IMG/VR virus record: IMGVR_UViG_2778261515_000020
Span: 1 to 10,757 of that record
Direction: 5' to 3' (one strand)
Source of the DNA: a virus
Lineage: Duplodnaviria > Heunggongvirae > Uroviricota > Caudoviricetes
Length of the DNA stretch: 10,757 bases
This document shows positions 1-10,757 of this stretch, piece by piece. Both the position numbers and the translations under genes were made by a program. How positions within the stretch are numbered: position 1 is the first letter of the stretch; every line of letters begins with the position of its first letter. The notes under the pieces were generated by a model. That model was given only the letters and a program-made list of their open reading frames with translations. It had not been told where the DNA came from and did not search any database.

Positions 1-588
1 TTCAGGCCAGATGACATCCGGCGCGGTGCTGGTATCTGTTGCCGTCACCGCGTCAGTGTAATCCAGCACGGCGTTAAGTCGGGTTGTTTCTGCCTGCGTC
101 AGTTTCCGTCCGGCCTGCAATTTCAGTTGAATCAGACTGATGGAAGCCATAGCAGCATCAATCAGTGACTGGCGCTGTGCTTCTGCCGCTTCGACTACGG
201 CGCTATGCTGTGCCTCAGTATCGGTCACCCATTTCTCACCATCCCATTTATCGTATGGAGATAAAGGGGCGATAGTGGTTGTATTTTCAGGGTAATCACC
301 CGGAGCTGTGATTTCTTTTGATTCTCCTGTTTCTGTGCTATAGACGATTTCACCGCGATGGTCTGGCACATATTCCCATGAATTTAAATTCACAGAACGA
401 CAGATTGCATAACCAACCTTATGTATGCCAGGTGCATCAAGACAGGAACATGCTGGAATACCGACCCCCACAGCAAGATATTCAGTTGATGTGGAAATAT
501 ATTCCCGTGTTTCACTATCATAGTTATAGACGGTAATATTCCCCGCCTTCGTGGCAATAAACTCGCTATTTAATACAGCATTATCCAT
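1..588 (-). CDS. Phage tail fiber assembly protein (Tfa/gpG-like), partial; C-terminus lies beyond the window start
   Basis: Hand translation of the minus strand from the ATG at 588-586 gives MDNAVLNSEFIATKAGNITVYNYDSETREYISTSTEYLAVGVGIPACSCLDAPG...APDVIWPE with no stop through position 1 (196 codons). The N-terminal motif and the DVIWPE-type C-terminal region are typical of enterobacterial Tfa proteins. The start overlaps the stop of the upstream cassette (TAATG). This ORF is absent from the supplied track because it is truncated. Confidence 0.8.
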   Translation of the reverse strand, partial: MDNAVLNSEFIATKAGNITVYNYDSETREYISTSTEYLAVGVGIPACSCLDAPGIHKVGYAICRSVNLNSWEYVPDHRGEIVYSTETGESKEITAPGDYPENTTTIAPLSPYDKWDGEKWVTDTEAQHSAVVEAAEAQRQSLIDAAMASISLIQLKLQAGRKLTQAETTRLNAVLDYTDAVTATDTSTAPDVIWPE

Positions 589-1034
589 TATGCAGCCCTC
601 ACGATATAGTTAAATGCAACATTTCGTGGGCGGGTTTCGTTACCGCCAGGGAGCTGAAAAGCGTTGATAATCCCACCGCTTGCCTGACTTATTCCATCCG
701 TGTACAACCCGCCACCGGCACTGTCGCTGAGTGCAAATGTTTTTGATGGTGAACTGTTTGAAGCTGGTCCCCAGTATTTTAATGCGAGCTTTCTGACTTC
801 ATCACTCTGAATACTCAATAAAGCACGCCCTGTATCAATGCTGCGCCCATCATCCCAGCCACGAATAAACTCACCGCGGAGATCAGGTAGTTTCCCTGAT
901 GGATATGCTGTAGCAAGACGGGGATATTTAACCTTATCAAAGGCAGCGCCATTGCATTTCAGCCAGCCTGTTGGCGGCGTAGCTGAAGGCCACGGAACAG
1001 GGACACCAACAGGTAATGCAGAGCCTTCTCCCAA
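588..1034 (-). CDS. Tail fiber C-terminal variable cassette B (tail-collar-like domain); promoterless 3' gene segment
   Basis: The ORF translation contains LPVGVPVPWPSATPPTGWLKCNGAAF...LPDLRGEFIRGWDDGR, which matches the phage tail collar domain pattern as I recall it. The first codon in the track is TTG, not ATG, and there is no RBS, so this is a cassette rather than a free-standing gene. It ends ...NYIVRAA with its stop overlapping the tfa start. Confidence 0.6.
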   Translation of the reverse strand: MGEGSALPVGVPVPWPSATPPTGWLKCNGAAFDKVKYPRLATAYPSGKLPDLRGEFIRGWDDGRSIDTGRALLSIQSDEVRKLALKYWGPASNSSPSKTFALSDSAGGGLYTDGISQASGGIINAFQLPGGNETRPRNVAFNYIVRAA

Positions 1035-1047
1035 ACCAACGTTTTTA
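807..1047. repeat. Direct repeat copy 1 (about 241 bp, roughly 85% identical by eye to 1294..1534); 5' conserved part of cassette B
   Basis: Visual alignment of the plus strand: ctgaatactcaataaa...ccaaaccaacgttttta is shared by both copies, with identity breaking sharply after gttttta. Confidence 0.75.
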
Positions 1048-1051
1048 TGCA
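1026..1051 (-). other. Candidate invertase crossover site (hix/gix/pix-like) at the 5' end of cassette B
   Basis: The minus strand reads TGCATAAAAACG-TT-GGTTTGGGAGAA, resembling the AAAACC-NN-GGTTT core of Hin/Gin-family sites as I remember them. It sits exactly at the homology breakpoint between cassettes A and B. Confidence 0.4.
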
Positions 1052-1563
1052 GCTCTCACAATAAAGTTGAATGCAATATTGCGCGGTCGTGTTTCGCTCC
1101 CGCCTGTGTTACCAATACTCCCTCGTGTATGTAGCGTTGGTGATGGAATCAGGGTTCCGCCTGCACTGGTACCATCCAGTCCCTTGCCCTGTGTATATGC
1201 TCTTCTGAAGATTGCCGCCAGTTCCCATACCTCTTTTGAGTCATACCCATCGTTGGCGACAACAGGATGACGGTGCTTTTCCAGCATTCCGGCCTGAATA
1301 CTCAATAAAACACGTCCAGCATCAATACCGCGCCCATCATCCCAGCCACGAATAAATTCACCGCGTAAATCAGGCAGTTTTCCTGACGGGTACGCTGTGG
1401 CTAGTTTGGGATACTTCAGCTTATCAAAGGCAGCACCATTGCATTTTAGCCAGCCCTCTGGAGGTGTGGCTGAAGGCCACGGAACTGTTACACCAACAGG
1501 CAACGCAGAACCTTCCCCCAAACCAACGTTTTTAACTTCGAAAACAGAGCTATCTAATAGCAT
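1045..1563 (-). CDS. Tail fiber C-terminal variable cassette A (tail-collar-like domain); promoterless 3' gene segment next to the invertase
   Basis: The translation has the same tail-collar-like motif (LPVGVTVPWPSATPPEGWLKCNGAAF...LPDLRGEFIRGWDDGRG), then a divergent middle, then the same C-terminal tail as cassette B (ETRPRNIAFNFIVRAA). There is no RBS upstream of the ATG at 1563. Its position next to the invertase matches the silent S'v-type segment of Mu G / P1 C / e14 P systems. Confidence 0.6.
   Translation of the reverse strand: MLLDSSVFEVKNVGLGEGSALPVGVTVPWPSATPPEGWLKCNGAAFDKLKYPKLATAYPSGKLPDLRGEFIRGWDDGRGIDAGRVLLSIQAGMLEKHRHPVVANDGYDSKEVWELAAIFRRAYTQGKGLDGTSAGGTLIPSPTLHTRGSIGNTGGSETRPRNIAFNFIVRAA
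1294..1534. repeat. Direct repeat copy 2 (about 241 bp); 5' conserved part of cassette A
   Basis: Visual alignment with 807..1047. A second shorter shared block, about 75% identical by eye, lies at the cassette 3' ends (591..648 versus 1048..1105). Confidence 0.75.
1513..1538 (-). other. Candidate invertase crossover site (hix/gix/pix-like) at the 5' end of cassette A
   Basis: The minus strand reads AAGTTAAAAACG-TT-GGTTTGGGGGAA. The right half and centre are shared with the cassette B site and the left half differs, as with hixL versus hixR. It lies about 55 bp upstream of the invertase start. Confidence 0.4.
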
Positions 1564-1591
1564 TTTTACTAACAGAAACAGGATGCTTTTT

Positions 1592-2191
1592 ATGCAAATT
1601 GGCTATATTCGCGTATCAACAAATGACCAGAACACGGATTTGCAACGCAATGCGCTCAATAGCGCAGGATGTGAACTGATTTTTGAAGATAAAATCAGCG
1701 GAACAAAATCAGCCAGACCGGGATTGAAAAAACTGCTCAGAACGTTATCAGCGGGGGATACGCTCGTTGTCTGGAAACTGGACAGGCTGGGCAGAAGCAT
1801 GAAACACCTGATCACACTGATTGAGGAATTGCGGAAAAAAGGTGTCAATTTTCGTAGTCTGACGGATTCAATTGATACCAGTACCCCAATGGGACGATTT
1901 TTCTTCCACGTGATGGGCGCCCTGGCTGAAATGGAACGTGAATTAATTGTAGAGCGTACACTGGCCGGACTGGCAGCAGCCCGCGCACAGGGGCGAATTG
2001 GTGGGCGTCGCCCGAAACTGACAAAAGAGCAACATGAGCAAATAGCGAGGCTGATTAAAAACGGCCACGACAGAAAACAGCTGGCCATAATTTACGACAT
2101 CGGTATATCGACGATTTATCGTTATCACCCTGTAGGTGACACGCAACCCGGAGGAATAATTGAGAATACTCAGGAAACAAAAAACCGCTAA
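1592..2191 (+). CDS. Serine-recombinase DNA invertase, Hin/Gin/Cin/Pin family
   Basis: MQIGYIRVSTNDQNTDLQRNAL...DTLVVWKLDRLGRSMKHL...SLTDSIDTSTPMGRFFFHVMGALAEMERELIVERTLAGLAAARAQGRIGGRRPKLT closely resembles the Hin and Pin sequences as I recall them, including the catalytic Ser in IRVST and a C-terminal HTH. The start was chosen at the ATG at 1592 (AGGA 8 nt upstream). The track ORF from 1397 is an upstream artefact. Confidence 0.9.
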   Translation: MQIGYIRVSTNDQNTDLQRNALNSAGCELIFEDKISGTKSARPGLKKLLRTLSAGDTLVVWKLDRLGRSMKHLITLIEELRKKGVNFRSLTDSIDTSTPMGRFFFHVMGALAEMERELIVERTLAGLAAARAQGRIGGRRPKLTKEQHEQIARLIKNGHDRKQLAIIYDIGISTIYRYHPVGDTQPGGIIENTQETKNR

Positions 2192-2211
2192 TCTGAACAT
2201 TAGCGGTTTTT
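2181..2211. terminator. Bidirectional intrinsic terminator between the convergent invertase and U genes
   Basis: Perfect 12-bp stem AAAACCGCTAAT / ATTAGCGGTTTT around a 6-nt loop (CTGAAC), with A-tract on one side and T-tract on the other. The stem overlaps the invertase stop codon (2189-2191) and lies 9 nt from the U stop. Confidence 0.6.
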
Positions 2212-2219
2212 ACGTTAAA

Positions 2220-2708
2220 TCAGAACACCCCTTTAACTGAGCTGACCACATTGTTAAGGGATGATGTCACCTTATCTTTAAGACCGGACAGCATATCACT
2301 GAACGATGAGGATTGCAGGCGCTCCCGCAAATCCTCATCACAGCGTTCAAGGGTCAGGGAAAACTCTATCTTTTTCGCTTTCCCGTAGCGATCCAGTTCA
2401 GAGCGGGTCGTGCTCGTTTCAGTCAGAACATACATGCCGTAAATCTGCCCGACGCCATCAATCAGAGGCCACGGGCGTCCCGCATACGCCTGCGTGGCCA
2501 GCAGCGACAGCGACACTTCGCCGCCTGTAATCTCAGGATAAAGCACGCCGGAAAGAACGATGCGATCATCACCTGCACCGATATACTGCCAGCTTGCTGA
2601 ACGGTTAACGCGCTCGTTTTTCACATGTCGCCAGCTTTTGTTTTGCTGTAACTGCTGATGCGGTAATGTGCGCAACTCAAAAACAAACATGCCGTAGATC
2701 ATCATCAT
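2220..2708 (-). CDS. U: P2 gpU-like tail protein
   Basis: 162 aa beginning MMMIYGMFVFELRTLPHQQLQ...WPLIDGVGQIYGMYV, resembling P2 gpU as I recall it. AAGGAG lies 7 nt upstream of the ATG and overlaps the T stop. It sits immediately downstream of T, as in P2. Confidence 0.85.
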   Translation of the reverse strand: MMMIYGMFVFELRTLPHQQLQQNKSWRHVKNERVNRSASWQYIGAGDDRIVLSGVLYPEITGGEVSLSLLATQAYAGRPWPLIDGVGQIYGMYVLTETSTTRSELDRYGKAKKIEFSLTLERCDEDLRERLQSSSFSDMLSGLKDKVTSSLNNVVSSVKGVF

Positions 2709-2719
2709 GGCACGACTCC

Positions 2720-5557
2720 TTACTCTTTATCATAAAAGCTACCACGCCCGGCACGGGTACGCCGCTCCAGTTCTGCCCTGACCATTTCGCCGACCAGTTT
2801 CGCCAGTTCGCGGGGATTCTGCGTAACAACGTTATGCAGATGGACATGAATTTCACCACCAAATTCGGGTGCCGCAGTCTCCCGGCTGCGGGAAGATGCG
2901 GAAACGGGCGCAACTGGCGCACGTGCGGCCTCCACGACCGGACGGGAGCTTGCTGCAACAACAGGGGGCAACACCGGAGATAACGGAGCCGGGACCACGG
3001 GTGTGATGTTGATTGCGGAAGCAGGCTTACTGACCTGCGCAATCTTCCGCTCCTGCCACTCCCCGCGAACAGCAAGCGCACGGGGCAGGTTCTTAAAGAC
3101 AATATCACCGGGGCCGATACGCTTTTTCGTCTCATCAACCAGCTTGCCTGTGTTATCTGCAATTTTGCTGAGCCTGCGCAGCGTGCCAGTGTTGTTGTCC
3201 GTGAGCGGCTTGTTGTCTTTAGGCTTATCGCCTCCGGTCCCTGTTTCCGCAGATTTCGGCGGATTGATTTTTGCCAGGTCCCCCTGAAGCAAAGCAACCT
3301 TGTCCTGAAGAATGGCCGCACGCTGCGCGTCTTCGATTTTCTTTCTCGCCCTTTCCGCTTCATCTGGAAGGACGCCAAGTTTTTCCAGTATCCATGCCAG
3401 CGTATCCAGCAGCATTTTTGCAGGCGTCAGGACAAGCTGTAACGCACCGCCAAGAACGTTGCCGAACACCTCGCCAGCACTGGTGCATTTATCCAGCGTT
3501 TCCTTACTGGATTCCATCGGTGACAGCAGCGATGTAAACCAGTTAAAGACCTGAATCACGCCATCACGAACTAGTTCGAAAACAGGGCCAAACCGTTCAA
3601 AGGTTTCGCGTAACGGGGCCAGCCGCTCCATAATCCCGCTGAACACCCCGGCAAAAAATGCCCTGATTGGGTCCCAGTATTTCCAGATGAGAGCGGCAGC
3701 TCCGGCAAGCGCAGCCACGATAAGACCGACCGGGCTGAACAACGCCCCGATAGCGCCTCCAAGTAAAGAGACGGAACCCGCCACCATTCCCCACAGCGCT
3801 GGCAGGACCCTGACAGCATTCATTGATCCGGTCAGGAGGGAAAAACCAAGACGCAGTTTTGCCAGCGGGCCAGCAAGCACCCCAAGAGCCAGTGACAACG
3901 AGCCAACCGTTGCAGTCATTGCCAGCAGCGCACCGCCTGCAATCAGTAGCTGGCGCGTCAGTGCCGGATGGGCCTGCGCCAGCTCCGTCACCTTTGAGAC
4001 CACCCGAGTGAGCCACTGCGTGACAGAGCGCAGCGGACCGTCAATCAGATCCGCAATGCGGATACGCAGCCCCTCCCATGCACTGCCGAGTGATCTCAGG
4101 TCGCCATCAAGGTTATTGGCCATAACCTTTGCCGTGCGTTCAGCCTCACCGCGTGCGCCTTCAAGTTCTTTTCTCAGCTTGGGCAGAGAACCGTCACCTG
4201 CCGCATCAACGAGGGCCATAAATGACGTGAAGGCCTCTTCTCCGGCTATGTCCTTAAAGAACGATACCCGGTCAACTTCCCCGTATTTGCGGGTGGCTTT
4301 ATAAAGGTCGGCCAGCACATCCTCCATCGGGCGCATTTTGCCGTTCGCATCAGAGACAGCCACACCAAGCTCTTTCAGCGCCTCTGCTGCCGCCTTTGGC
4401 GGTGATGCCAGACGAGCAAGGCTGGCACGCATTGCCGTCCCGGCATCACTCCCTCTGATACCCATATTCGCCAGCACGCCCGCCATCGCTGCGGCCTGCT
4501 CCAGCGATATTCCCAGCTTACCCGCCACCGGACCTGCATATTTCATGGTTTCGCCCAGCGCGCGAAGGTCGGTGTTAGTACGGGTAAACGCCGCAGTAAG
4601 TGTGTCGCCGACCCGGTCCATCTGGTCAGCAGAGAGACCGAACTGCGTCAGGATATTTGAGCCAATATCCGCCGTCTCGCCAAGGTCCATACCGCCAGCC
4701 GTTGCCATGCTCAGCACGCCGGGAAGCGCAGCCTGAATGGCTTCTGGTGTGAAGCCAGCCATAGCAAGAAATGCCTGCCCACTGGCGGCATCACTCGCAG
4801 TAAACTGCGTTTCAGAGCCGAGCTTTAGCGCCTGCTCACGCAGCGCCTTAAACTGCGGGCTGTTCTGGTCAATTCGCGTCAGCGCCTGCACACGGGACAT
4901 CTCTTTCCCGAATCCGATAGCGGGCTGCAAAAAACGCCCGGCAGCATAGCCGCCAGCCGCTGCCGCACCAGTTGCCAGCGCACCACCCGTTTTCAGTTTT
5001 CCCGCTGTTTCCTGCGCGCGTGAATACTGCTCACGCGCCCGCGTTACACGCGCAAGCGCCTGTCGTTCGCGTTCAAGCTGGTTGTTGTACTGTTCGGTGC
5101 GTCTGATGGCCTGCTGGATGGTGTTATCGCTGCCTGTCAGGGAAATACCGTGGCGTTTAAGCTCTCCGCCAAGCTCCCGCATTTTCTGAATTTCCCGCGT
5201 GCGCGATTCATTCAGGCGTTCAAGCCGGGTGCTTAACTGCTGCATCAGCCTTTGTTGTTTTTCGCTGAGCACAGTACCCGTGCGTTGTAACTGATGAAGG
5301 GCGTTAAGCTGGCGTCGTGCTTTCACGATGCCAGCATCCGCTTTACTGACAGCATCGCGGGCGCGCTCAAATGAACGCGCCTGACGCTCGAGATTTTTGA
5401 TTGCCCCCTGCGTTTGCTGGATGGAGTCACCAAGCCGCCCCATCAGGCGGCGGGCGTTTTCGGCTGGCCGGGTCAGCCTGTCAACAGCACTGAAGGCGAC
5501 CCGAATGTCAAGAGTCTTCATTGTCTGCATTCCCACTGCGAAGTGCCGCCCGCTCAC
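2720..5557 (-). CDS. T: Tail tape measure protein (P2 gpT-like)
   Basis: ORF of about 945 aa with coiled-coil-like Q/R/E/A-rich N-terminal half, a central hydrophobic glycine/alanine-rich segment, and a position between E/E' and U. The start is uncertain: the longest ORF begins with GTG at 5557, and in-frame ATGs at 5530 and 5521 are alternatives. Confidence 0.8.
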   Translation of the reverse strand: MSGRHFAVGMQTMKTLDIRVAFSAVDRLTRPAENARRLMGRLGDSIQQTQGAIKNLERQARSFERARDAVSKADAGIVKARRQLNALHQLQRTGTVLSEKQQRLMQQLSTRLERLNESRTREIQKMRELGGELKRHGISLTGSDNTIQQAIRRTEQYNNQLERERQALARVTRAREQYSRAQETAGKLKTGGALATGAAAAGGYAAGRFLQPAIGFGKEMSRVQALTRIDQNSPQFKALREQALKLGSETQFTASDAASGQAFLAMAGFTPEAIQAALPGVLSMATAGGMDLGETADIGSNILTQFGLSADQMDRVGDTLTAAFTRTNTDLRALGETMKYAGPVAGKLGISLEQAAAMAGVLANMGIRGSDAGTAMRASLARLASPPKAAAEALKELGVAVSDANGKMRPMEDVLADLYKATRKYGEVDRVSFFKDIAGEEAFTSFMALVDAAGDGSLPKLRKELEGARGEAERTAKVMANNLDGDLRSLGSAWEGLRIRIADLIDGPLRSVTQWLTRVVSKVTELAQAHPALTRQLLIAGGALLAMTATVGSLSLALGVLAGPLAKLRLGFSLLTGSMNAVRVLPALWGMVAGSVSLLGGAIGALFSPVGLIVAALAGAAALIWKYWDPIRAFFAGVFSGIMERLAPLRETFERFGPVFELVRDGVIQVFNWFTSLLSPMESSKETLDKCTSAGEVFGNVLGGALQLVLTPAKMLLDTLAWILEKLGVLPDEAERARKKIEDAQRAAILQDKVALLQGDLAKINPPKSAETGTGGDKPKDNKPLTDNNTGTLRRLSKIADNTGKLVDETKKRIGPGDIVFKNLPRALAVRGEWQERKIAQVSKPASAINITPVVPAPLSPVLPPVVAASSRPVVEAARAPVAPVSASSRSRETAAPEFGGEIHVHLHNVVTQNPRELAKLVGEMVRAELERRTRAGRGSFYDKE

Positions 5558-6040
5558 GCCAGCTAACCACTTCGCCGGGCGTCATCATGAAGATTTCGGC
5601 GGGCGACCAGTTAAAAATAACGGCAATATCTGCCACAAAGTCTTCTATGTGCTCAAAGCACACAACCGTGATCAGGCTTCCGTCGCCTGTTCGTTCTTCC
5701 CGCCAGAGTCCGCACCGCTCAAAAAATTTACGGCAACCACACATAACTGAATAAAGTCACGGGATGCCATTTTTTTGATCGTCACTTCATCCAGTCGCGG
5801 TGATGTCACGCGTGACAACAGCGTAAACATGGATTCCGCTTTCAGACTCAGCACATCAGACAGCGACAGACCACGCAGGGATCCAGCCTGCTCAATAGCC
5901 CCGGTGATCTCCACATACGTGATTTTTTCGTCGCCTCGCTCAATTGGCTGGGTAAGTTTTACGCCGCGCTCGCTGGTTTCTTTCGCAGTATCAGCAACCA
6001 CCACAGCGTTTTCAGTATCGGTATTTTTCGTCTCTTTCAT
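5508..6040 (-). CDS. Tail assembly chaperone E+E' fusion made by programmed -1 ribosomal frameshift
   Basis: Slippery heptamer T TTT TTG in the zero frame of E (minus strand, 5720..5726, codons Asn-Phe-Leu 105-107). The -1 frame continues ...FFERCGLWREERTGDGSLITVVCFEHIEDF...NADNEDS to a stop at 5508, matching the track ORF 5508..5744 and overlapping the T start. This is the same arrangement as P2 E/E' and lambda G/GT. Confidence 0.7.
5672..6040 (-). CDS. E: Tail assembly chaperone gpE-like (zero-frame product)
   Basis: 122-aa ORF between FII and T. GAAAGGAG lies 8 nt upstream of the ATG at 6040. It contains the frameshift heptamer near its 3' end. Confidence 0.8.
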   Translation of the reverse strand: MKETKNTDTENAVVVADTAKETSERGVKLTQPIERGDEKITYVEITGAIEQAGSLRGLSLSDVLSLKAESMFTLLSRVTSPRLDEVTIKKMASRDFIQLCVVAVNFLSGADSGGKNEQATEA

Positions 6041-6094
6041 CAGAAAACTCCTTTCAGTCAGAGGCGACGCACTGCGCCGCCTGCATATTACTTA

Positions 6095-6607
6095 TCAGCC
6101 GAGCCCGAGCGCGGAGCGGATGCGGTCGGGTACAATGTCCTTGCCATCCTTCCGGTAGATGTGGTTCACCAGGTCAATTTCCCACACCGGACGATCGTTA
6201 ATACTCAGCTTGTAGTAGGTGTTTTTGACAGCGTAAGTGTGTGACGTGGCTTCGCCCTGTTTGGCCTCCCCCATATCAATTTCCGTCACACGCCCGCGCA
6301 TCTCGATTTCATACAGGTCGCTTTCTGCATCGGTGTAGTATTCACCCGCAAAACGCAGCAGCGTGCCGTCCATTGTTCCGCCATATTTAAGGAACAGCGC
6401 ACGAACGGCGCCACCCATGACAAAACTCGCATCAAGCGCGGAATCGTCCAGGCCGAGGTCGATACTCACCGCTCCCAGCATGCCACCACCACGATAGCTG
6501 TCGGTTTTACGCGTCAGTTTAGGCGGGGTGACAGACGTCACCTTACCCACTTCATTTTCACCATCCACAAACAGCGTAAAAAAACGAAGATGTTTTGGTA
6601 CGGCCAT
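6095..6607 (-). CDS. FII: Tail tube protein (P2 FII-like)
   Basis: 170 aa at the right size and position for P2 FII. Its start overlaps the FI stop (TAATG). Confidence 0.88.
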   Translation of the reverse strand: MAVPKHLRFFTLFVDGENEVGKVTSVTPPKLTRKTDSYRGGGMLGAVSIDLGLDDSALDASFVMGGAVRALFLKYGGTMDGTLLRFAGEYYTDAESDLYEIEMRGRVTEIDMGEAKQGEATSHTYAVKNTYYKLSINDRPVWEIDLVNHIYRKDGKDIVPDRIRSALGLG

Positions 6608-7791
6608 TAAGCACCTCCAAGCACTGCAAATGCAGGACCAAAGAACTCATCAGTGAACGCCTGGTAAAGCTCCATATCTTCCAGCGGAGGAACGGGCGTA
6701 TATTTATAGCGAATACGCACGCGCCCCTGTCGTAATTCTGTGGTGCTGTTATCCACGATGTCATACCAGCACGATGCGCCAATCAGTTTCCCGGCAGTAA
6801 CCAGCGAATCCAGTTTTGCCCTGATGGCACTGATAACATCCTTCACGTTCGCGGGCGTCAGTGGACTGTCGATGGTTTCAAACTGCGCTTCCGCAATTGA
6901 ATCAGCCAGCACCTGTGCGGTTCGGGTATACACCTCAAAGATGTAGGCATTCGTTTCCGGTGTGCGGTTGCCCCAGAAGCGGAACCCGTTGCGGCGAATG
7001 ATGGTTGTGATTTCTTTGTTGTTGAGGCTGTTGGCATCGCTGTCAGCAGCCTGCAACGACCAGAACACATGCCTGGACATCCCCAGCACATTTTTGACCG
7101 GAACGTTGGACAGCGATTTGTGCCAGCCCTGCTCATGGTCAATGTACGCACGAAGGCCGCACGCATAGGCTGGCGCGGGGAAAACCTCATTCTCGCCACT
7201 TTTCGGGTTGTAAGCGATGAAGTCCGGCCACAGGAGCATCAGCTCGCGTTCGTTGAATTTTTCACGGTATGCAATGGCTTCAGCCATCGTGTTACAGCCA
7301 TGACAGGAGGCATACACAAACGCGCGCAGTTTACCTGCAATCACGCACAGGGATTTTGTCACCGCCTCCGTGTCCAGCCCCGGCGCGGCCAGAATACGCG
7401 GACGGTATCCGATGCTTTCATCCTGCTCTGCAACAAGCAGCGCATACATCCCCGTATAGCTGCCGTCGGATTCAGAACCACCAATAACCAGTTGATCCTG
7501 TGTTTTTCCGTCTTCTTCTTTGTGTTCAGCCACGCGAACGACGATCACCTTTGTGCTCACCTGGTCTGCAATGGGTTTCAGCGCACGGTACAGCGTCCCC
7601 GTTGTCCCGCATTTTCCCAGCACGTCATTGACGCGGGTCACTAATGCAGGCTTGTTCAGCGGGAACAGCTTCGCGTCCGCATCGTCCGCCGTTGCCACGA
7701 TACCGATAACGCTGGAATCAACGTCGTTAATTGCTGTTACCAGGTCGGTACTTTCCGTAACGCGGGCGCCATGAAAACGAGTTTCACTCAT
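6607..7791 (-). CDS. FI: Contractile tail sheath protein (P2 FI-like)
   Basis: 394 aa with motifs I recall from P2 FI (LSNV.V...FW.LQ..., TLIRR.GFRFWGNRT, YTRTAQV.AD, YTPVPPLE). AAGGGG RBS upstream of the ATG at 7791. Confidence 0.9.
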   Translation of the reverse strand: MSETRFHGARVTESTDLVTAINDVDSSVIGIVATADDADAKLFPLNKPALVTRVNDVLGKCGTTGTLYRALKPIADQVSTKVIVVRVAEHKEEDGKTQDQLVIGGSESDGSYTGMYALLVAEQDESIGYRPRILAAPGLDTEAVTKSLCVIAGKLRAFVYASCHGCNTMAEAIAYREKFNERELMLLWPDFIAYNPKSGENEVFPAPAYACGLRAYIDHEQGWHKSLSNVPVKNVLGMSRHVFWSLQAADSDANSLNNKEITTIIRRNGFRFWGNRTPETNAYIFEVYTRTAQVLADSIAEAQFETIDSPLTPANVKDVISAIRAKLDSLVTAGKLIGASCWYDIVDNSTTELRQGRVRIRYKYTPVPPLEDMELYQAFTDEFFGPAFAVLGGA

Positions 7792-7948
7792 AGCTTCAGC
7801 CCCTTGTATCCGTTAAATGATTCGGCAACAATCATCACCCACCACGCGCGTAATCTCACCCCTGCGACGTTCTCCCGCCACGGCGACAACAAAAAGCAGT
7901 AACCCCCTCCGCACGCACATGCGACCATGCCGCACAGGGAGGGAACAG

Positions 7949-9049
7949 ATGACCGACACCACCATGCAATTGCTCAGTCAGGGCACAGACCCCGTGAAAA
8001 TGCCGGATTTTGATATTCTCGCGGAGGGTAAAACGCTGTCAGGCGTGGCAGAGCGCCTGATGAGCCTGTCACTGACCGACAACCGGGGATTTGAGGCGGA
8101 CCAGCTCACCATCACGCTGGATGATGCAGATGGTCAGTTGCAGCTACCGCCACGGGGCGCGCGCCTGACGGTTCTCATTGGCTGGAAAGGAGAACCGCTG
8201 ACAGAAAAAGGCACTTACATTGTTGATGAAATCGCTCACGAAGGACCGCCGGACAGGCTGACTGTTTCAGCCAGAAGCGCAGATTTTCGGGATGAATTTA
8301 ACGTTAAACGTGAGGTGTCCTGGCATGATGTGACCGTTGAGCGTGTGGTATCCGCCATCGCTCATCGGTACGGTCTGAAACCGCAAATCAGCGAAATGCT
8401 GATGGATATCGAAATCGACCACGCCGACCAGACCGAAGAAAGCGACATGTCCTTTCTTACGCGCATGGCGGAAATGCTGGGCGCAATCACCACGGTAAAA
8501 AGCGGTAATCTGTTATTCATTATGCCAGGCGGTGGCGTGAACGCACAGGGCCAGCCGTTGCCATCGTTCGCCATCACGCGCAGCAGTGGCGATCGCCATC
8601 AGTTCCGCATTGCTGACCGCGAAGCGTATACGGGGGTACGCGCTTACTGGCTTGATCTTAATTACGGGAAAAAGAAAAAAGTCAGCGTGAAACGCCGTAA
8701 ACCGAAAATGGAGAAAAGCAGTAGCCGTGAAGGCGACTATATGGAAGGTGCGGAAGGCAACGTGTTTGTGTTACGCAAGACTTATCAGAACGAACAGGCA
8801 GCAAGACGCGCTGCGGCGGCAAAGTGGCAGCAGCTACAACGCGGAGCCGCATCATTCTCCATCACACTGGCACGTGGACGCGCAGAACTCTACCCCGAAA
8901 TGCATGGCACGGTAACAGGATTTAAAAGCGAGATTGATAATCAGGACTGGATTATTGCAAAAGCCGAGCACACCATTGATAACAGCGGCTTTACCACGCA
9001 GCTTGAGCTTGAGGCAAAAATCCCGGAATGGATAGCGGAAACAGAGTGA
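7949..9049 (+). CDS. D: Late control / tail protein gpD-like
   Basis: Long ORF with a lysine-rich patch (GKKKKVSVKRRKPK) and overall gpD-like character. The start was chosen at the ATG at 7949 (GGGAGGG 5 nt upstream), not the alternative-start extension to 7817 in the track. Confidence 0.85.
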   Translation: MTDTTMQLLSQGTDPVKMPDFDILAEGKTLSGVAERLMSLSLTDNRGFEADQLTITLDDADGQLQLPPRGARLTVLIGWKGEPLTEKGTYIVDEIAHEGPPDRLTVSARSADFRDEFNVKREVSWHDVTVERVVSAIAHRYGLKPQISEMLMDIEIDHADQTEESDMSFLTRMAEMLGAITTVKSGNLLFIMPGGGVNAQGQPLPSFAITRSSGDRHQFRIADREAYTGVRAYWLDLNYGKKKKVSVKRRKPKMEKSSSREGDYMEGAEGNVFVLRKTYQNEQAARRAAAAKWQQLQRGAASFSITLARGRAELYPEMHGTVTGFKSEIDNQDWIIAKAEHTIDNSGFTTQLELEAKIPEWIAETE

Positions 9050-9091
9050 GCAACTTAGAATAGCGGCAGCACCACGTTAAGGGAGGTCGCT

Positions 9092-9352
9092 ATGTTCCGT
9101 TGTCCGCTTTGTGGCGCATCTGCCCGTATCCGCACCAGTCGTCCAGAAAATGATTCAAACACCGTGCGGCAAAAGTATTACCAGTGTAACAATCTGGAAT
9201 GCGGCGTATGCTTCTCAACACTGGAAGCTTTCCATAAATTCACATCAAAACACGCCTCCGGCGTTCACTCTTCAGAAGGTATCCCGTGGCATGATCTGCC
9301 AGCTTCACACAGGGGAAACAATCAGATGAGTTTGCCTTTACCTCAGAATTAA
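9092..9352 (+). CDS. ogr: Ogr/Delta-family zinc-finger late transcription activator
   Basis: MFRCPLCGASARIRTSR...YYQCNNLECGVCF is a Cys4 arrangement (C-x2-C ... C-x4-C) with clear N-terminal similarity to P2 Ogr as I recall it (MFHCPLC...ARTSR...YHQCQNVNC). Strong GGGAGG RBS. Located directly after D, as in P2. Confidence 0.85.
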   Translation: MFRCPLCGASARIRTSRPENDSNTVRQKYYQCNNLECGVCFSTLEAFHKFTSKHASGVHSSEGIPWHDLPASHRGNNQMSLPLPQN

Positions 9353-9750
9353 CAGACAGAATTGCCGGAGTAACAAAAAAAGCGATACACCCATTTACCC
9401 GGCAGTACCACTCCCCCGCCCCATAGCTGGCAGTGAGGCGGGATGTTTTGCCTACCCGCCAGCAGGCACCATCGTGGAAATATCCAACATTGAAGGACGC
9501 CCGGATAAGCCTGTTATCAGGCAAATCTTACCCATCGGTCATAACCTGCCTGATGTAAAGCCCGGCGAACAATTGCAACAACAGCGTGCAGAAGTGTTTC
9601 AGCATGTCACGACTGACGGAAGCTGGCGCAGAAAAACCGACCAGCAAATCCAAGAAGAAAAGCGCGTAAAACGATCACTGCTGATGTGGCGTTGCTTTAT
9701 ACAAGCTGCTATTTGCGATATGCTGAACACATCAACCTGTGGAGTGCATT

Positions 9751-10377
9751 ATGAAACAAAAATCAAAGTCTGCTGCCATTGCTGCTATTGCTACAGCTCT
9801 GACAGCATCACTGGCTCCGGTGCCAGCTAAAAGCACGATACTACCAACAACAGTTATTGAATCCGTGACACACGCCAGAGTGGTTTCAATGCTTACATTT
9901 GAGCATCATGATGGTCAGGTGTTTCTGCCTCTTGAAGAAGCTATTGAATATATCAACGGGCTGAATGACAACATGCGTGCCGCGCTCAATGCAGTCATTG
10001 AAGAACGACAGAACAGAGGCAAGGGAGCTCTGTTTGCTGACAAAACCGCAAAAATCATAAAAATATGCGAAGAGTCACTTAAGCAGCACAGCCGTGTTAA
10101 AGAGGCTGTCAAAATTGTAATGGATCCGGATAACCTGGCAAAAATGTATCCGGATAGCATGGAGCAAAGAATCGCCTATCGCAATAAACTGGTTCGTTTT
10201 GGTCGGGCAATTGCGCAGGGAGAGTTTATCGCTCGTGATGCCATCAACGCCATCAAACGAAGCACCGCACCAGACAAAACGACCAGCCTAGGCAATACGC
10301 TGTCTGACGGAAATGTGAAAGCAATGATTATTGCCGAGCATAAAAACATGGGACTCCCGGCACCGGAGTTTTCCTGA
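9751..10377 (+). CDS. Hypothetical protein (208 aa) with a hydrophobic N-terminal segment; first gene of a two-gene cargo operon and candidate partner of the downstream YafO-like protein
   Basis: Start chosen at the ATG at 9751 (GGAG 6 nt upstream); the track begins at an upstream GTG. The N-terminus MKQKSKSAAIAAIATALTASLAPVPA looks like a signal peptide or membrane anchor. I recognise no family. Its stop overlaps the next start (TGATG). Codon usage looks AT-richer than the tail genes. Confidence 0.6.
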   Translation: MKQKSKSAAIAAIATALTASLAPVPAKSTILPTTVIESVTHARVVSMLTFEHHDGQVFLPLEEAIEYINGLNDNMRAALNAVIEERQNRGKGALFADKTAKIIKICEESLKQHSRVKEAVKIVMDPDNLAKMYPDSMEQRIAYRNKLVRFGRAIAQGEFIARDAINAIKRSTAPDKTTSLGNTLSDGNVKAMIIAEHKNMGLPAPEFS

Positions 10378-10757
10378 TGGCAAGCAAAGTAAGCATTCAT
10401 AAAGATGTTGAATACCAGGACATTGCAAAAGTTTACGGAAAGGCTCTGGAAAACTGGTTAAATACCGGTGTTCTCCCTGACAGATTCGGCAATGAAGGGC
10501 AGTGGGAAGATAACGCAAGATTATGTGGTTCGTTTGTATATAAATTACACATAAGACTACCGTCAGAACCACCATGGAAGAAAAGCAAAGCCCAAATAGA
10601 CAGAACTTCAAATATCTATCTGGTTTATACAAGGCACTGGATGGATTATGACAATATACAAATCATCAGCATCATGGCCCCAGATGCTCACGAAAAAGCC
10701 AAAACTTCTTTCATGGCTGAGCTGGAAAGACGGGCAGAAGAATTCCAGAACTCATAA
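10377..10757 (+). CDS. YafO-family toxin-like protein (putative ribosome-dependent mRNA interferase)
   Basis: 126 aa. It shares with E. coli YafO, as I recall its sequence, the motifs GVLPDRFG (YafO GVLPDIFG), HIRL (HIHL), DRTSNIYLVYTRH (RTNDEAHLVYCQG), IISIMAPDAHEKA (LIAILKPEPHKLA) and MAELER (MAEAFR). The assignment is from memory, not from a database search. Confidence 0.5.
   Translation: MASKVSIHKDVEYQDIAKVYGKALENWLNTGVLPDRFGNEGQWEDNARLCGSFVYKLHIRLPSEPPWKKSKAQIDRTSNIYLVYTRHWMDYDNIQIISIMAPDAHEKAKTSFMAELERRAEEFQNS

Follow-up and report, generated by a model that had tools for sequence, protein, structure and literature searches.

Inherited inversion of the FI-to-U tail block in P88-like relatives of phage P2, with a putative bidirectional late promoter at its divergent junction

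Phage P2 carries its tail genes FI, FII, E, E', T, U and D in a collinear array under the promoter PF, followed by ogr, an arrangement that the P2 record confirms as one operon. A tailed-phage contig (IMG/VR record IMGVR_UViG_2778261515_000020; the window, i.e. the whole stretch of 10,757 nucleotides analyzed here) departs from this order and raises the question of how the block from FI to U came to face the other way. An earlier note on this DNA had read it as a roughly 5.7-kb inversion, arising by an ancient rearrangement, a large invertible segment, a modular replacement or a misassembly. Gene calls based on the ORF listing and Pfam recovered the complete late tail set of P2-like phages (Peduoviridae), namely FI, FII, E/E', T, U, D and Ogr (Table 1), with the same genes and internal order as the P2 F operon and 31-50% identity to P2 in tblastn. 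In these searches the P2 proteins FI, FII, E and T, as well as U, matched the minus strand and D and ogr the plus strand; hence the canonical order, with FI to U and D in one collinear operon, is not found. The layout of an invertase (+), FI to U (-) and D-ogr (+) described in that note was thus upheld by ORFs, Pfam and tblastn alike. At the left junction the invertase and U converge, with 28 bp between their stops (2192-2219), and at the right one FI and D diverge, with 157 bp between their starts (7792-7948). The separation of D from the FI-operon promoter that the note had foreseen follows from this, as the transcript from that promoter runs away from D, which in the window heads a transcription unit of its own. 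The frame overlapping the end of E corresponds to the E+E' pair with a -1 frameshift annotated in the P2 record. Between the convergent genes lies a hairpin that folds on either strand (-15.6 and -18.4 kcal/mol; z -4.4 and -5.0), and as a two-way terminator it would end the invertase transcript on one side and the FI-U transcript on the other.

Table 1. Genes, junction elements and crossover sites of the window
Feature	Position	Strand	Evidence or remark
cix/gix-like crossover site, copy 1	1030-1049	.	outside FI-U block; pattern search; ETEC4085 match breaks at 1025
cix/gix-like crossover site, copy 2	1517-1536	.	just 5' of invertase; pattern search; UMNK88, ETEC1749 and rl0044 matches break at 1512
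Serine DNA invertase	1592-2191	+	Pfam Resolvase 5.6e-51 and HTH_7 2.6e-12; named DNA invertase in P88 and phiSM records
Two-way intrinsic terminator hairpin (A5-stem-T5/6)	2180-2211	both	between convergent invertase and U; terminator scan score on minus strand; fold
gpU, tail protein	2220-2708	-	final gene of inverted operon; Pfam Phage_P2_GpU 6.4e-39; 46% identity to P2 U
gpT, tape measure protein	2720-5557 (PGAP start 5521, UMNK88 annotation)	-	Pfam PhageMin_Tail 4.9e-59; 33% identity to P2 T
E' frame	5508-5744	-	overlaps E at its 3' end; presumably made by -1 frameshifting, as in P2; Pfam Phage_P2_GpE 1.7e-12
gpE, tail assembly chaperone	5672-6040	-	31-32% identity to P2 E
gpFII, tail tube	6095-6607	-	Pfam Phage_tube 1.6e-45; 41% identity to P2 FII
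gpFI, tail sheath	6607-7791	-	opening gene of inverted operon; three sheath Pfam domains; 45% identity to P2 FI
FI|D divergent spacer, 157 bp	7792-7948	.	putative bidirectional Ogr-dependent late promoter; without sigma-70 consensus promoter; elements conserved across clade
Predicted PF -10, GATGAT	7831-7836	-	conserved columns -38..-33 from box start; predicted start near 7824
Ogr-box dyad GTTCT-N12-ACAAC	7869-7890	.	centre 7879.5; TGT-N12-ACA with one mismatch (TCT for TGT)
Predicted extended -10 of D promoter, TG-C-GACCAT	7920-7928	+	conserved 'tg.aA.cat', +51..+59 from box start; predicted start near 7935
Shine-Dalgarno GGGAGGG for D	7938-7944	+	
gpD, tail/baseplate hub protein	7949-9049	+	Pfam Phage_GPD 3.1e-17; 50% identity to P2 D; 99.7% to P88 D
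ogr, zinc-finger late activator	9092-9352	+	Pfam Ogr_Delta 5.2e-14; 42% identity to P2 Ogr

The window constitutes the tail end of an E. coli prophage that belongs to the P2 family and is P88-like (Xuanwuvirus-type), and a prophage remnant beside serS in the ETEC strain UMNK88 is 100% identical to it. Its gene order is that of P88 (NC_026014; Peduoviridae, Xuanwuvirus), P884B11, Citrobacter phiSM, 520873, 500465-2, 503458, Chuche and PhiR44_2, and it shows the Xuanwuvirus-type succession of invertase(+), U-T-E'-E-FII-FI(-) and D(+) seen in the P88 and phiSM annotations. Positions 1598-9387 match P88, P884B11, Shae_phiSM, 520873 and 500465-2 as one collinear megablast piece at 90-93% DNA identity, with the single alignment to P88, limited to the part of its genome inside the window, at 92.2%; in 503458, Chuche and PhiR44_2 the collinear matches are shorter and still cross both junctions. 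P88 is a functional phage: it is plaque-forming, with a contractile tail and a burst size of ~65 (PMC5285337). The inverted order is further present in the Salmonella phage SEN5 (Senquatrovirus), in all 80 IMG/VR viral contigs whose D is 64-99% identical to that of the window and in 48 of 48 genome loci with a D at least 61% identical; together these loci and contigs span more than 20 genera of Enterobacterales. Loci with a D at most 54% identical comprised 21 collinear ones like P2 and 11 with U(+) adjoining D, this comparison set being confined to loci bearing both peptide motifs used in the scan. A misassembly of the contig, for which nothing speaks besides its difference from P2, is next to inconceivable: four complete E. 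coli chromosomes, each the product of a separate assembly, are 100% identical to it over at least 9.2 kb including both junctions, and phage isolates sequenced independently show the same inverted order, whether they come from E. coli, Citrobacter or Salmonella. The order itself is known solely through deposited annotations; we found no explicit description of the inverted block in the literature on P88, phiSM, SEN4/5, a Xenorhabdus prophage or Xuanwuvirus.

The 5.7-kb FI-U segment might be taken to flip still, through the serine invertase that directly adjoins it or through another recombinase, the more so as this invertase is evidently active, given that genomes otherwise 100% identical to the window (ETEC4085, UMNK88, ETEC1749 and rl0044) differ in their fibre cassettes. 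However, their identity breaks near the two cix/gix-like crossover sites, both of which lie left of the invertase and are the only occurrences of the pattern in the window, against none expected by chance. Such sites are absent from both junctions (2192-2219 and 7792-7948) even with three mismatches allowed, and a whole-window search yielded no inverted repeat linking the junctions, only scattered short pairs of chance-like character away from them; the by-eye impression that the junctions lack inverted repeats thus held. The invertase therefore works leftward on the fibre cassettes (~1-1590) and not on the FI-U block. In this it resembles the Gin/Cin/Hin/Pin/Min systems, where a serine invertase lies beside alternative C-terminal fibre cassettes with short crossover sites, and sequenced isolates of the window's lineage likewise diverge exactly at these sites; the block is outside the part of the window that corresponds to such a system. 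A flipping block is also at odds with the single orientation found throughout the 80 viral contigs, the 48 genome loci and 1357 E. coli genomes, and with the maintenance of the order in SEN5 and other members that have no invertase at all; in SEN4/SEN5 it is consequently gene G that is the convergent neighbor of U. Moreover, turning the block back would place U 5' of D, yet would fail to restore the overlapping U/D junction. We hence regard continued flipping as extremely improbable. Some relatives do have the invertase directly 5' of a collinear FI, as the earlier note stated, and two loci of this kind (L139 and L150) were recovered here.

How, then, did the inverted order originate? The divergence from P2 is even across the block and its flanks (tblastn identities of 45% for FI, 41% for FII, 31% for E, 33% for T, 46% for U, 50% for D, 42% for ogr, 47% for Q, 44% for P and 41% for N), and for each of D, FI and U the unrooted neighbor-joining tree contains one branch, of length 0.21-0.24, that parts all divergent from all collinear loci. 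With a single split in all three trees, and with a block that has diverged from P2 no further than the genes beside it, the sequence comparisons point to one inversion event in situ, although at such depth the alternative of an equally diverged replacement block is formally indistinguishable. Under this proposal the segment comprising the PF promoter, FI, FII, E/E', T and U would have inverted once, in place, in a progenitor of an extensive Enterobacterales sublineage within the P2-like phages, between a breakpoint 5' of the activator box of PF and another where U meets D. Mosaicism of phage genomes invites the alternative that the sheath-to-U module was brought in from another phage lineage and inserted in the opposite orientation, and indeed the fibre genes H and G have clearly been exchanged with P2 types (G is 95% identical to P2 G). 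Nevertheless, such a replacement is very unlikely, in that identity to P2 is 31-50% throughout, for the block genes just as for D, ogr and the head genes, the trees of FI and U repeat the divergent/collinear split of the flanking gene D with a similar branch length, and the distance from the PF box to the FI start (78-89 nt) brackets the 82.5 nt of P2. The unrooted trees give no direction, and the divergent order might in principle be ancestral, with the P2-type operon derived by a reverse inversion. This polarity is very unlikely: P2 and RE-2010 have the collinear order, and so do the distant outgroups Ralstonia RSA1 (D 43.5% identical) and Xanthomonas FoX5 (outside Peduoviridae; D 28.5% identical), in both of which U adjoins D, while the divergent order is restricted to one Enterobacterales clade.

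The inverted block is, almost certainly, an old, fixed and inherited feature of P88, SEN4/5 and their relatives, which make up a large branch among the P2-like phages, and, having been inherited ever since, it constitutes the normal gene order of that lineage. Thus, of the readings put forward in the earlier note, an inversion relative to P2 by ancient rearrangement stood, while the evidence contradicts an invertible segment, modular replacement and misassembly; a recent or active inversion is refuted by the stable, lineage-wide orientation shared by eight isolates, SEN5 and the contigs, loci and E. coli genomes counted above. Comparisons of P2-like prophages accordingly have to reckon with two stable tail-gene orders, and with the divergent one so widespread, it calls for no warning of faulty assembly or of a segment that still switches. 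As a marker the divergent FI|D junction cleanly identifies a large Enterobacterales clade to which Xuanwuvirus, Senquatrovirus and numerous unnamed prophages belong; among complete E. coli genomes an unbroken match crosses it in 1357 of 5426, roughly one in four. The finding is an ordinary one, mainly of housekeeping value.

There remains the question of how D is expressed. A consensus scan of the 157-bp spacer detected no sigma-70 promoter, and in the absence of a good -35 element any promoter here would be activator-dependent. Late promoters of P2 bear an Ogr-binding dyad with the consensus TGT-N12-ACA (PMC3931495; P2 record), and while a search of the window gave no exact match to this consensus in the FI|D spacer, a dyad with one mismatch is present. 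Across 75 of 75 distinct FI|D spacers a single box scoring at least 8/10 occurs at the same place, and scores of at least 9 were obtained in 59% of spacers as against 0.4% of shuffles. In aligned diverged spacers the half-sites are conserved and the N12 between them varies, the conserved element being the canonical GTTGT-N12-ACAAC, from which the window copy differs by its one mismatch and which many relatives possess in perfect form at this very place. The SEN4/SEN5 spacer, which likewise separates an inverted U-to-FI block from a D facing it, contains GTTGT-N12-ACAAT; their D is only ~63% identical to that of the window. The variant GTTCT-N12-ACAAC of the window recurs in the P-O spacer of P88. 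On the PF side 32 of 54 non-redundant spacers have the predicted -10 hexamer at offset -38. On the D side 26 of these 54 divergent spacers show the pattern in its strict form, as opposed to none of 16 collinear relatives, with the proposed hexamer of the window, GACCAT, being weak. As in the P2 Ogr/Delta late promoters, the dyad is centred ~55 nt upstream of the predicted start, a distance that in the window rests on the predicted -10s.

P2 itself offers two points of comparison. Its F operon has a late promoter box of the same type at the same distance 5' of FI, but there FI to U run in the same direction as D, the U and D genes overlap, and D lacks a separate promoter. The PP/PO pair of P2 has one dyad box, GTTGT-N12-CCATC (centre 3071.5), between divergent operons and annotated starts 55.5 nt to each side (3016 and 3127, 111 bp apart); the predicted starts at the FI|D junction, at -45 and +66 from the box start, are likewise 111 bp apart. 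The P2 starts are experimentally annotated, whereas those at FI|D are predicted, and PP/PO serves packaging and head genes, in contrast to the tail genes served by the FI|D spacer. We therefore consider it more likely than not, from sequence geometry and analogy, that the spacer is a bidirectional late promoter with one shared Ogr box, its starts, Ogr dependence and box sharing all being inferred. On this model the inversion would have carried the dyad-symmetric PF box next to D, where it may activate PF leftward and also a lineage-specific D promoter rightward, probably with read-through into ogr, each predicted start ~55 nt from the box centre in the geometry of PP/PO. The explanation as a whole, an ancient fixed inversion with a putative shared-box promoter, is in our judgement very probable. 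On balance we lean slightly toward the further view that the two-way firing of the symmetric box let the inversion be tolerated and become a hallmark of the clade, with a single box for FI-U and the new D(-ogr) promoter forming a second promoter of the PP/PO type, and D freed from translational coupling with U. That a symmetric Ogr box may permit an operon to be inverted without losing late control is a modest mechanistic point. No description of a second PP/PO-type promoter at FI|D was found in the P88, phiSM and SEN4/5 literature searched.

Outside the conserved stretch the window and the P88-like isolates differ in their fibre cassettes and in the cargo to the right of ogr, where P88 has hok/gef and the window an ORF of unknown function along with a YafO-type toxin. 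A further GTTCT-N12-ACAAC copy within the T gene of P88 (28823-28844) was treated as a chance occurrence and is absent from the window. In UMNK88 an IS3 element interrupts the copy of the window, whose H gene carries a frameshift.

The gene layout of the window was derived from a six-frame ORF list and Pfam scans, and the identity and strand of its tail genes agree with tblastn matches of P2 proteins (table). ORFs, Pfam and tblastn concur in placing the block FI to U on the minus strand between the plus-strand invertase and D-ogr, and the gaps claimed by the earlier note are exact: 28 bp from stop to stop between invertase and U, and 157 bp from start to start between FI and D. In the P2 reference record FI-FII-E-E'-T-U-D form one collinear operon read from the promoter PF, with ogr after D, which bears out the P2 collinearity stated in the earlier note. 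The observation of a block running opposite to D is therefore correct, and its explanation is ordinary.

Features of the window, with the basis of each assignment or the detail noted
Feature	Position	Strand	Basis or detail
Fibre C-terminal cassette, Collar domain	588-1034	-	ORF list, Pfam
Fibre C-terminal cassette, Collar domain	1045-1563	-	ORF list, Pfam
Serine invertase	1592-2191	+	ORF list, Pfam
Two-way terminator hairpin	2180-2211	both	at invertase|U boundary
U	2220-2708	-	ORF list, Pfam, tblastn with P2 proteins
T	2720-5557	-	ORF list, Pfam, tblastn with P2 proteins
E'	5508-5744	-	ORF list, Pfam
E	5672-6040	-	ORF list, tblastn with P2 proteins
FII	6095-6607	-	ORF list, Pfam, tblastn with P2 proteins
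FI	6607-7791	-	ORF list, Pfam, tblastn with P2 proteins
PF predicted -10	7836-7831	-	predicted start ~7824
Ogr box	7869-7890		GTTCT-N12-ACAAC, one mismatch
D promoter, predicted	TG 7920-7921, -10 7923-7928	+	start ~7935
D Shine-Dalgarno	7938-7944	+	D ATG at 7949
D	7949-9049	+	ORF list, Pfam, tblastn with P2 proteins
ogr	9092-9352	+	ORF list, Pfam, tblastn with P2 proteins

Megablast against phage genomes recovered window 1598-9387 as a single collinear piece, at 90-93% identity, in Escherichia phage P88, P884B11, Citrobacter phage Shae_phiSM, 520873 and 500465-2, and somewhat shorter pieces crossing both junctions in 503458, Chuche and PhiR44_2; the annotated strand pattern of P88 and phiSM is that of the window. 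As P88 is a contractile-tailed myovirus that produces plaques, with bursts of ~65 (PMC5285337), the divergent order is functional. Four porcine ETEC strains, UMNK88 among them, also carry the window at 100% identity in their chromosomes; in UMNK88 it lies at the right-hand end of a prophage truncated by IS3 and adjoining serS. The misassembly considered in the earlier note is contradicted by these four chromosomes and by the same order in P88 and phiSM. A query across the FI|D junction (7400-8350) matched 1380 of 5426 complete E. coli genomes, 1357 of which covered at least 80% of it in one piece, and no match pattern in this search pointed to the opposite orientation. In the UMNK88 copy (997525-1018770) the IS3 element cuts just upstream of gpV and the fibre gene H is frameshifted; this copy may be defective, a remnant with the tail part only. 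PGAP there sets the start of D ~310 nt too far downstream (window ~8258), the full ORF being intact.

To gauge the depth of the divergent order, IMG/VR was scanned with a D-protein alignment and 80 loci were classified by tblastn. All 80 (D 64-99% identical) carry U-T-E-FII-FI opposite to D-ogr, as does Salmonella phage SEN5 (Senquatrovirus), which differs from the window in lacking an invertase and whose D is only ~63% identical. Among one-genome-per-species bacterial contigs, the order is divergent in 48/48 loci with D at least 61% identical, from hosts including Salmonella, Serratia, Edwardsiella, Enterobacter, Pantoea, Erwinia, Kosakonia, Citrobacter, Pectobacterium, Brenneria, Klebsiella, Providencia, Xenorhabdus, Photorhabdus, Morganella, Hafnia and Yersinia. 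With D at most 54% identical, the 21 complete loci are collinear, and 11 more, truncated or partly matched, have U(+) beside D or no sign of the divergent order. An E. coli-type prophage with D 99% identical lies in an assembly labelled Vagococcus sp. WN89Y, a Firmicute (NZ_JBQPOM010000071.1); this label is probably due to contamination or mislabelling.

Neighbour-joining trees built for the flank gene D and for the block genes FI and U each show a single branch, 0.21-0.24 substitutions per site long, that parts all divergent from all collinear loci. The block genes are no more diverged from P2 (tblastn identity: FI 45, FII 41, E 31, T 33, U 46%) than the flank and head genes (D 50, ogr 42, portal 47, terminase 44, capsid 41%), and the outgroups Felsduovirus RE-2010, Ralstonia RSA1 and Xanthomonas FoX5 are collinear. 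Because surveys, trees, even block and flank identity and collinear outgroups concur, these sequence comparisons indicate one ancient in-place inversion, which came to characterise a large clade of P2-like phages in Enterobacterales. In two collinear P2-type loci, from Mixta sp. and Citrobacter sp. NCU1, an invertase homologue lies directly upstream of plus-strand FI, an arrangement differing from the divergent order by simple inversion of the PF-FI..U segment. A recent or active inversion, also entertained earlier, is at odds with the same order across phage isolates, both locus surveys and the E. coli genomes; such a stable lineage-wide arrangement, seen too in SEN5, is what the earlier note had named as refuting it. 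The feature fits P88-like phages fully and fails the tests that define an invertible segment. RefSeq and GenBank entries for named phages from two ICTV genera already show the divergent order in their annotation; no comment on it was found in the literature searched on phages carrying such annotations.

The invertase is not involved in the block inversion: many clade members lack it, and no inverted repeats linking the two junctions were found in the window. Its only two cix/gix-like sites (1030-1049 and 1517-1536), both left of the invertase, are direct copies adjoining two or more fibre C-terminal cassettes (window 1-1590). In otherwise 100%-identical genomes the match to the window breaks exactly at 1025 or 1512, near these sites, and the invertase therefore appears actively to shuffle the multi-cassette fibre region to its left. 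The invertase|U junction is spanned in only 620 E. coli genomes; others match only from ~2211 onward, a boundary formed by the two-way terminator hairpin (2180-2211).

Since D is an essential tail gene and nothing on its strand lies ahead of it, the FI|D spacer (7792-7948) must hold a promoter, yet a consensus scan found no sigma-70 promoter there. Alignment of diverged spacers revealed one conserved dyad, GTTGT-N12-ACAAC, which on sequence grounds is the P2-family Ogr box (consensus TGT-N12-ACA; PMC3931495, and the P2 record); the window's variant recurs in the P-O spacer of P88. A box scoring at least 8/10 occurs in 75/75 distinct spacers at constant distance from FI, its N12 varying freely, and scores of at least 9 are reached by 59% of real versus 0.4% of shuffled spacers. 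A third exact GTTCT-N12-ACAAC in P88 (28823-28844, minus strand), inside the tape-measure gene, has no counterpart in the window and probably arose by chance.

We anchored 54 non-redundant divergent spacers and 16 collinear relatives on the box, counting offsets from its start. On the FI strand a -10-like GATnAT lies at -38..-33 in 32/54 spacers; on the D strand an extended -10-like TGnAAnCAT lies at +51..+59, its strict pattern present in 26/54 divergent spacers versus 0/16 collinear relatives. The D half of this predicted promoter is clade-specific; the PF half, at the P2 distance from FI, would therefore have moved with the block. The predicted starts, at -45 and +66, are 111 bp apart, 55.5 nt to either side of the box centre. 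This predicted geometry would match that of the divergent P2 late promoters PP and PO, which have one annotated activator site in common and whose annotated starts, 3016 and 3127, are likewise separated by 111 bp, each 55.5 nt from the centre of the box (its GTTGT beginning at 3061). By this analogy D is probably expressed from a spacer promoter at the Ogr box, where one box would serve PF leftward and D rightward. Such a bidirectional promoter would be a by-product of the inversion, plausible and of modest interest.

The D-ogr gap, empty in the window (9050-9091), is an insertion hotspot in relatives: one locus (L023, 9335-12843) carries a SIR2+HerA defence pair (PADLOC 3e-155 and 3e-252), another (L014, 11359-14478) a 1039-aa ORF to which neither Pfam nor PADLOC gave a match, and an APEC genome a TIR-domain protein. 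Between ogr and host serS the window holds further cargo (9739-10757), in which no recognisable antitoxin family was found: an unknown 212-aa ORF and an abutting YafO-family type II toxin (Pfam 1.1e-27), whereas P88 carries hok/gef at this position.
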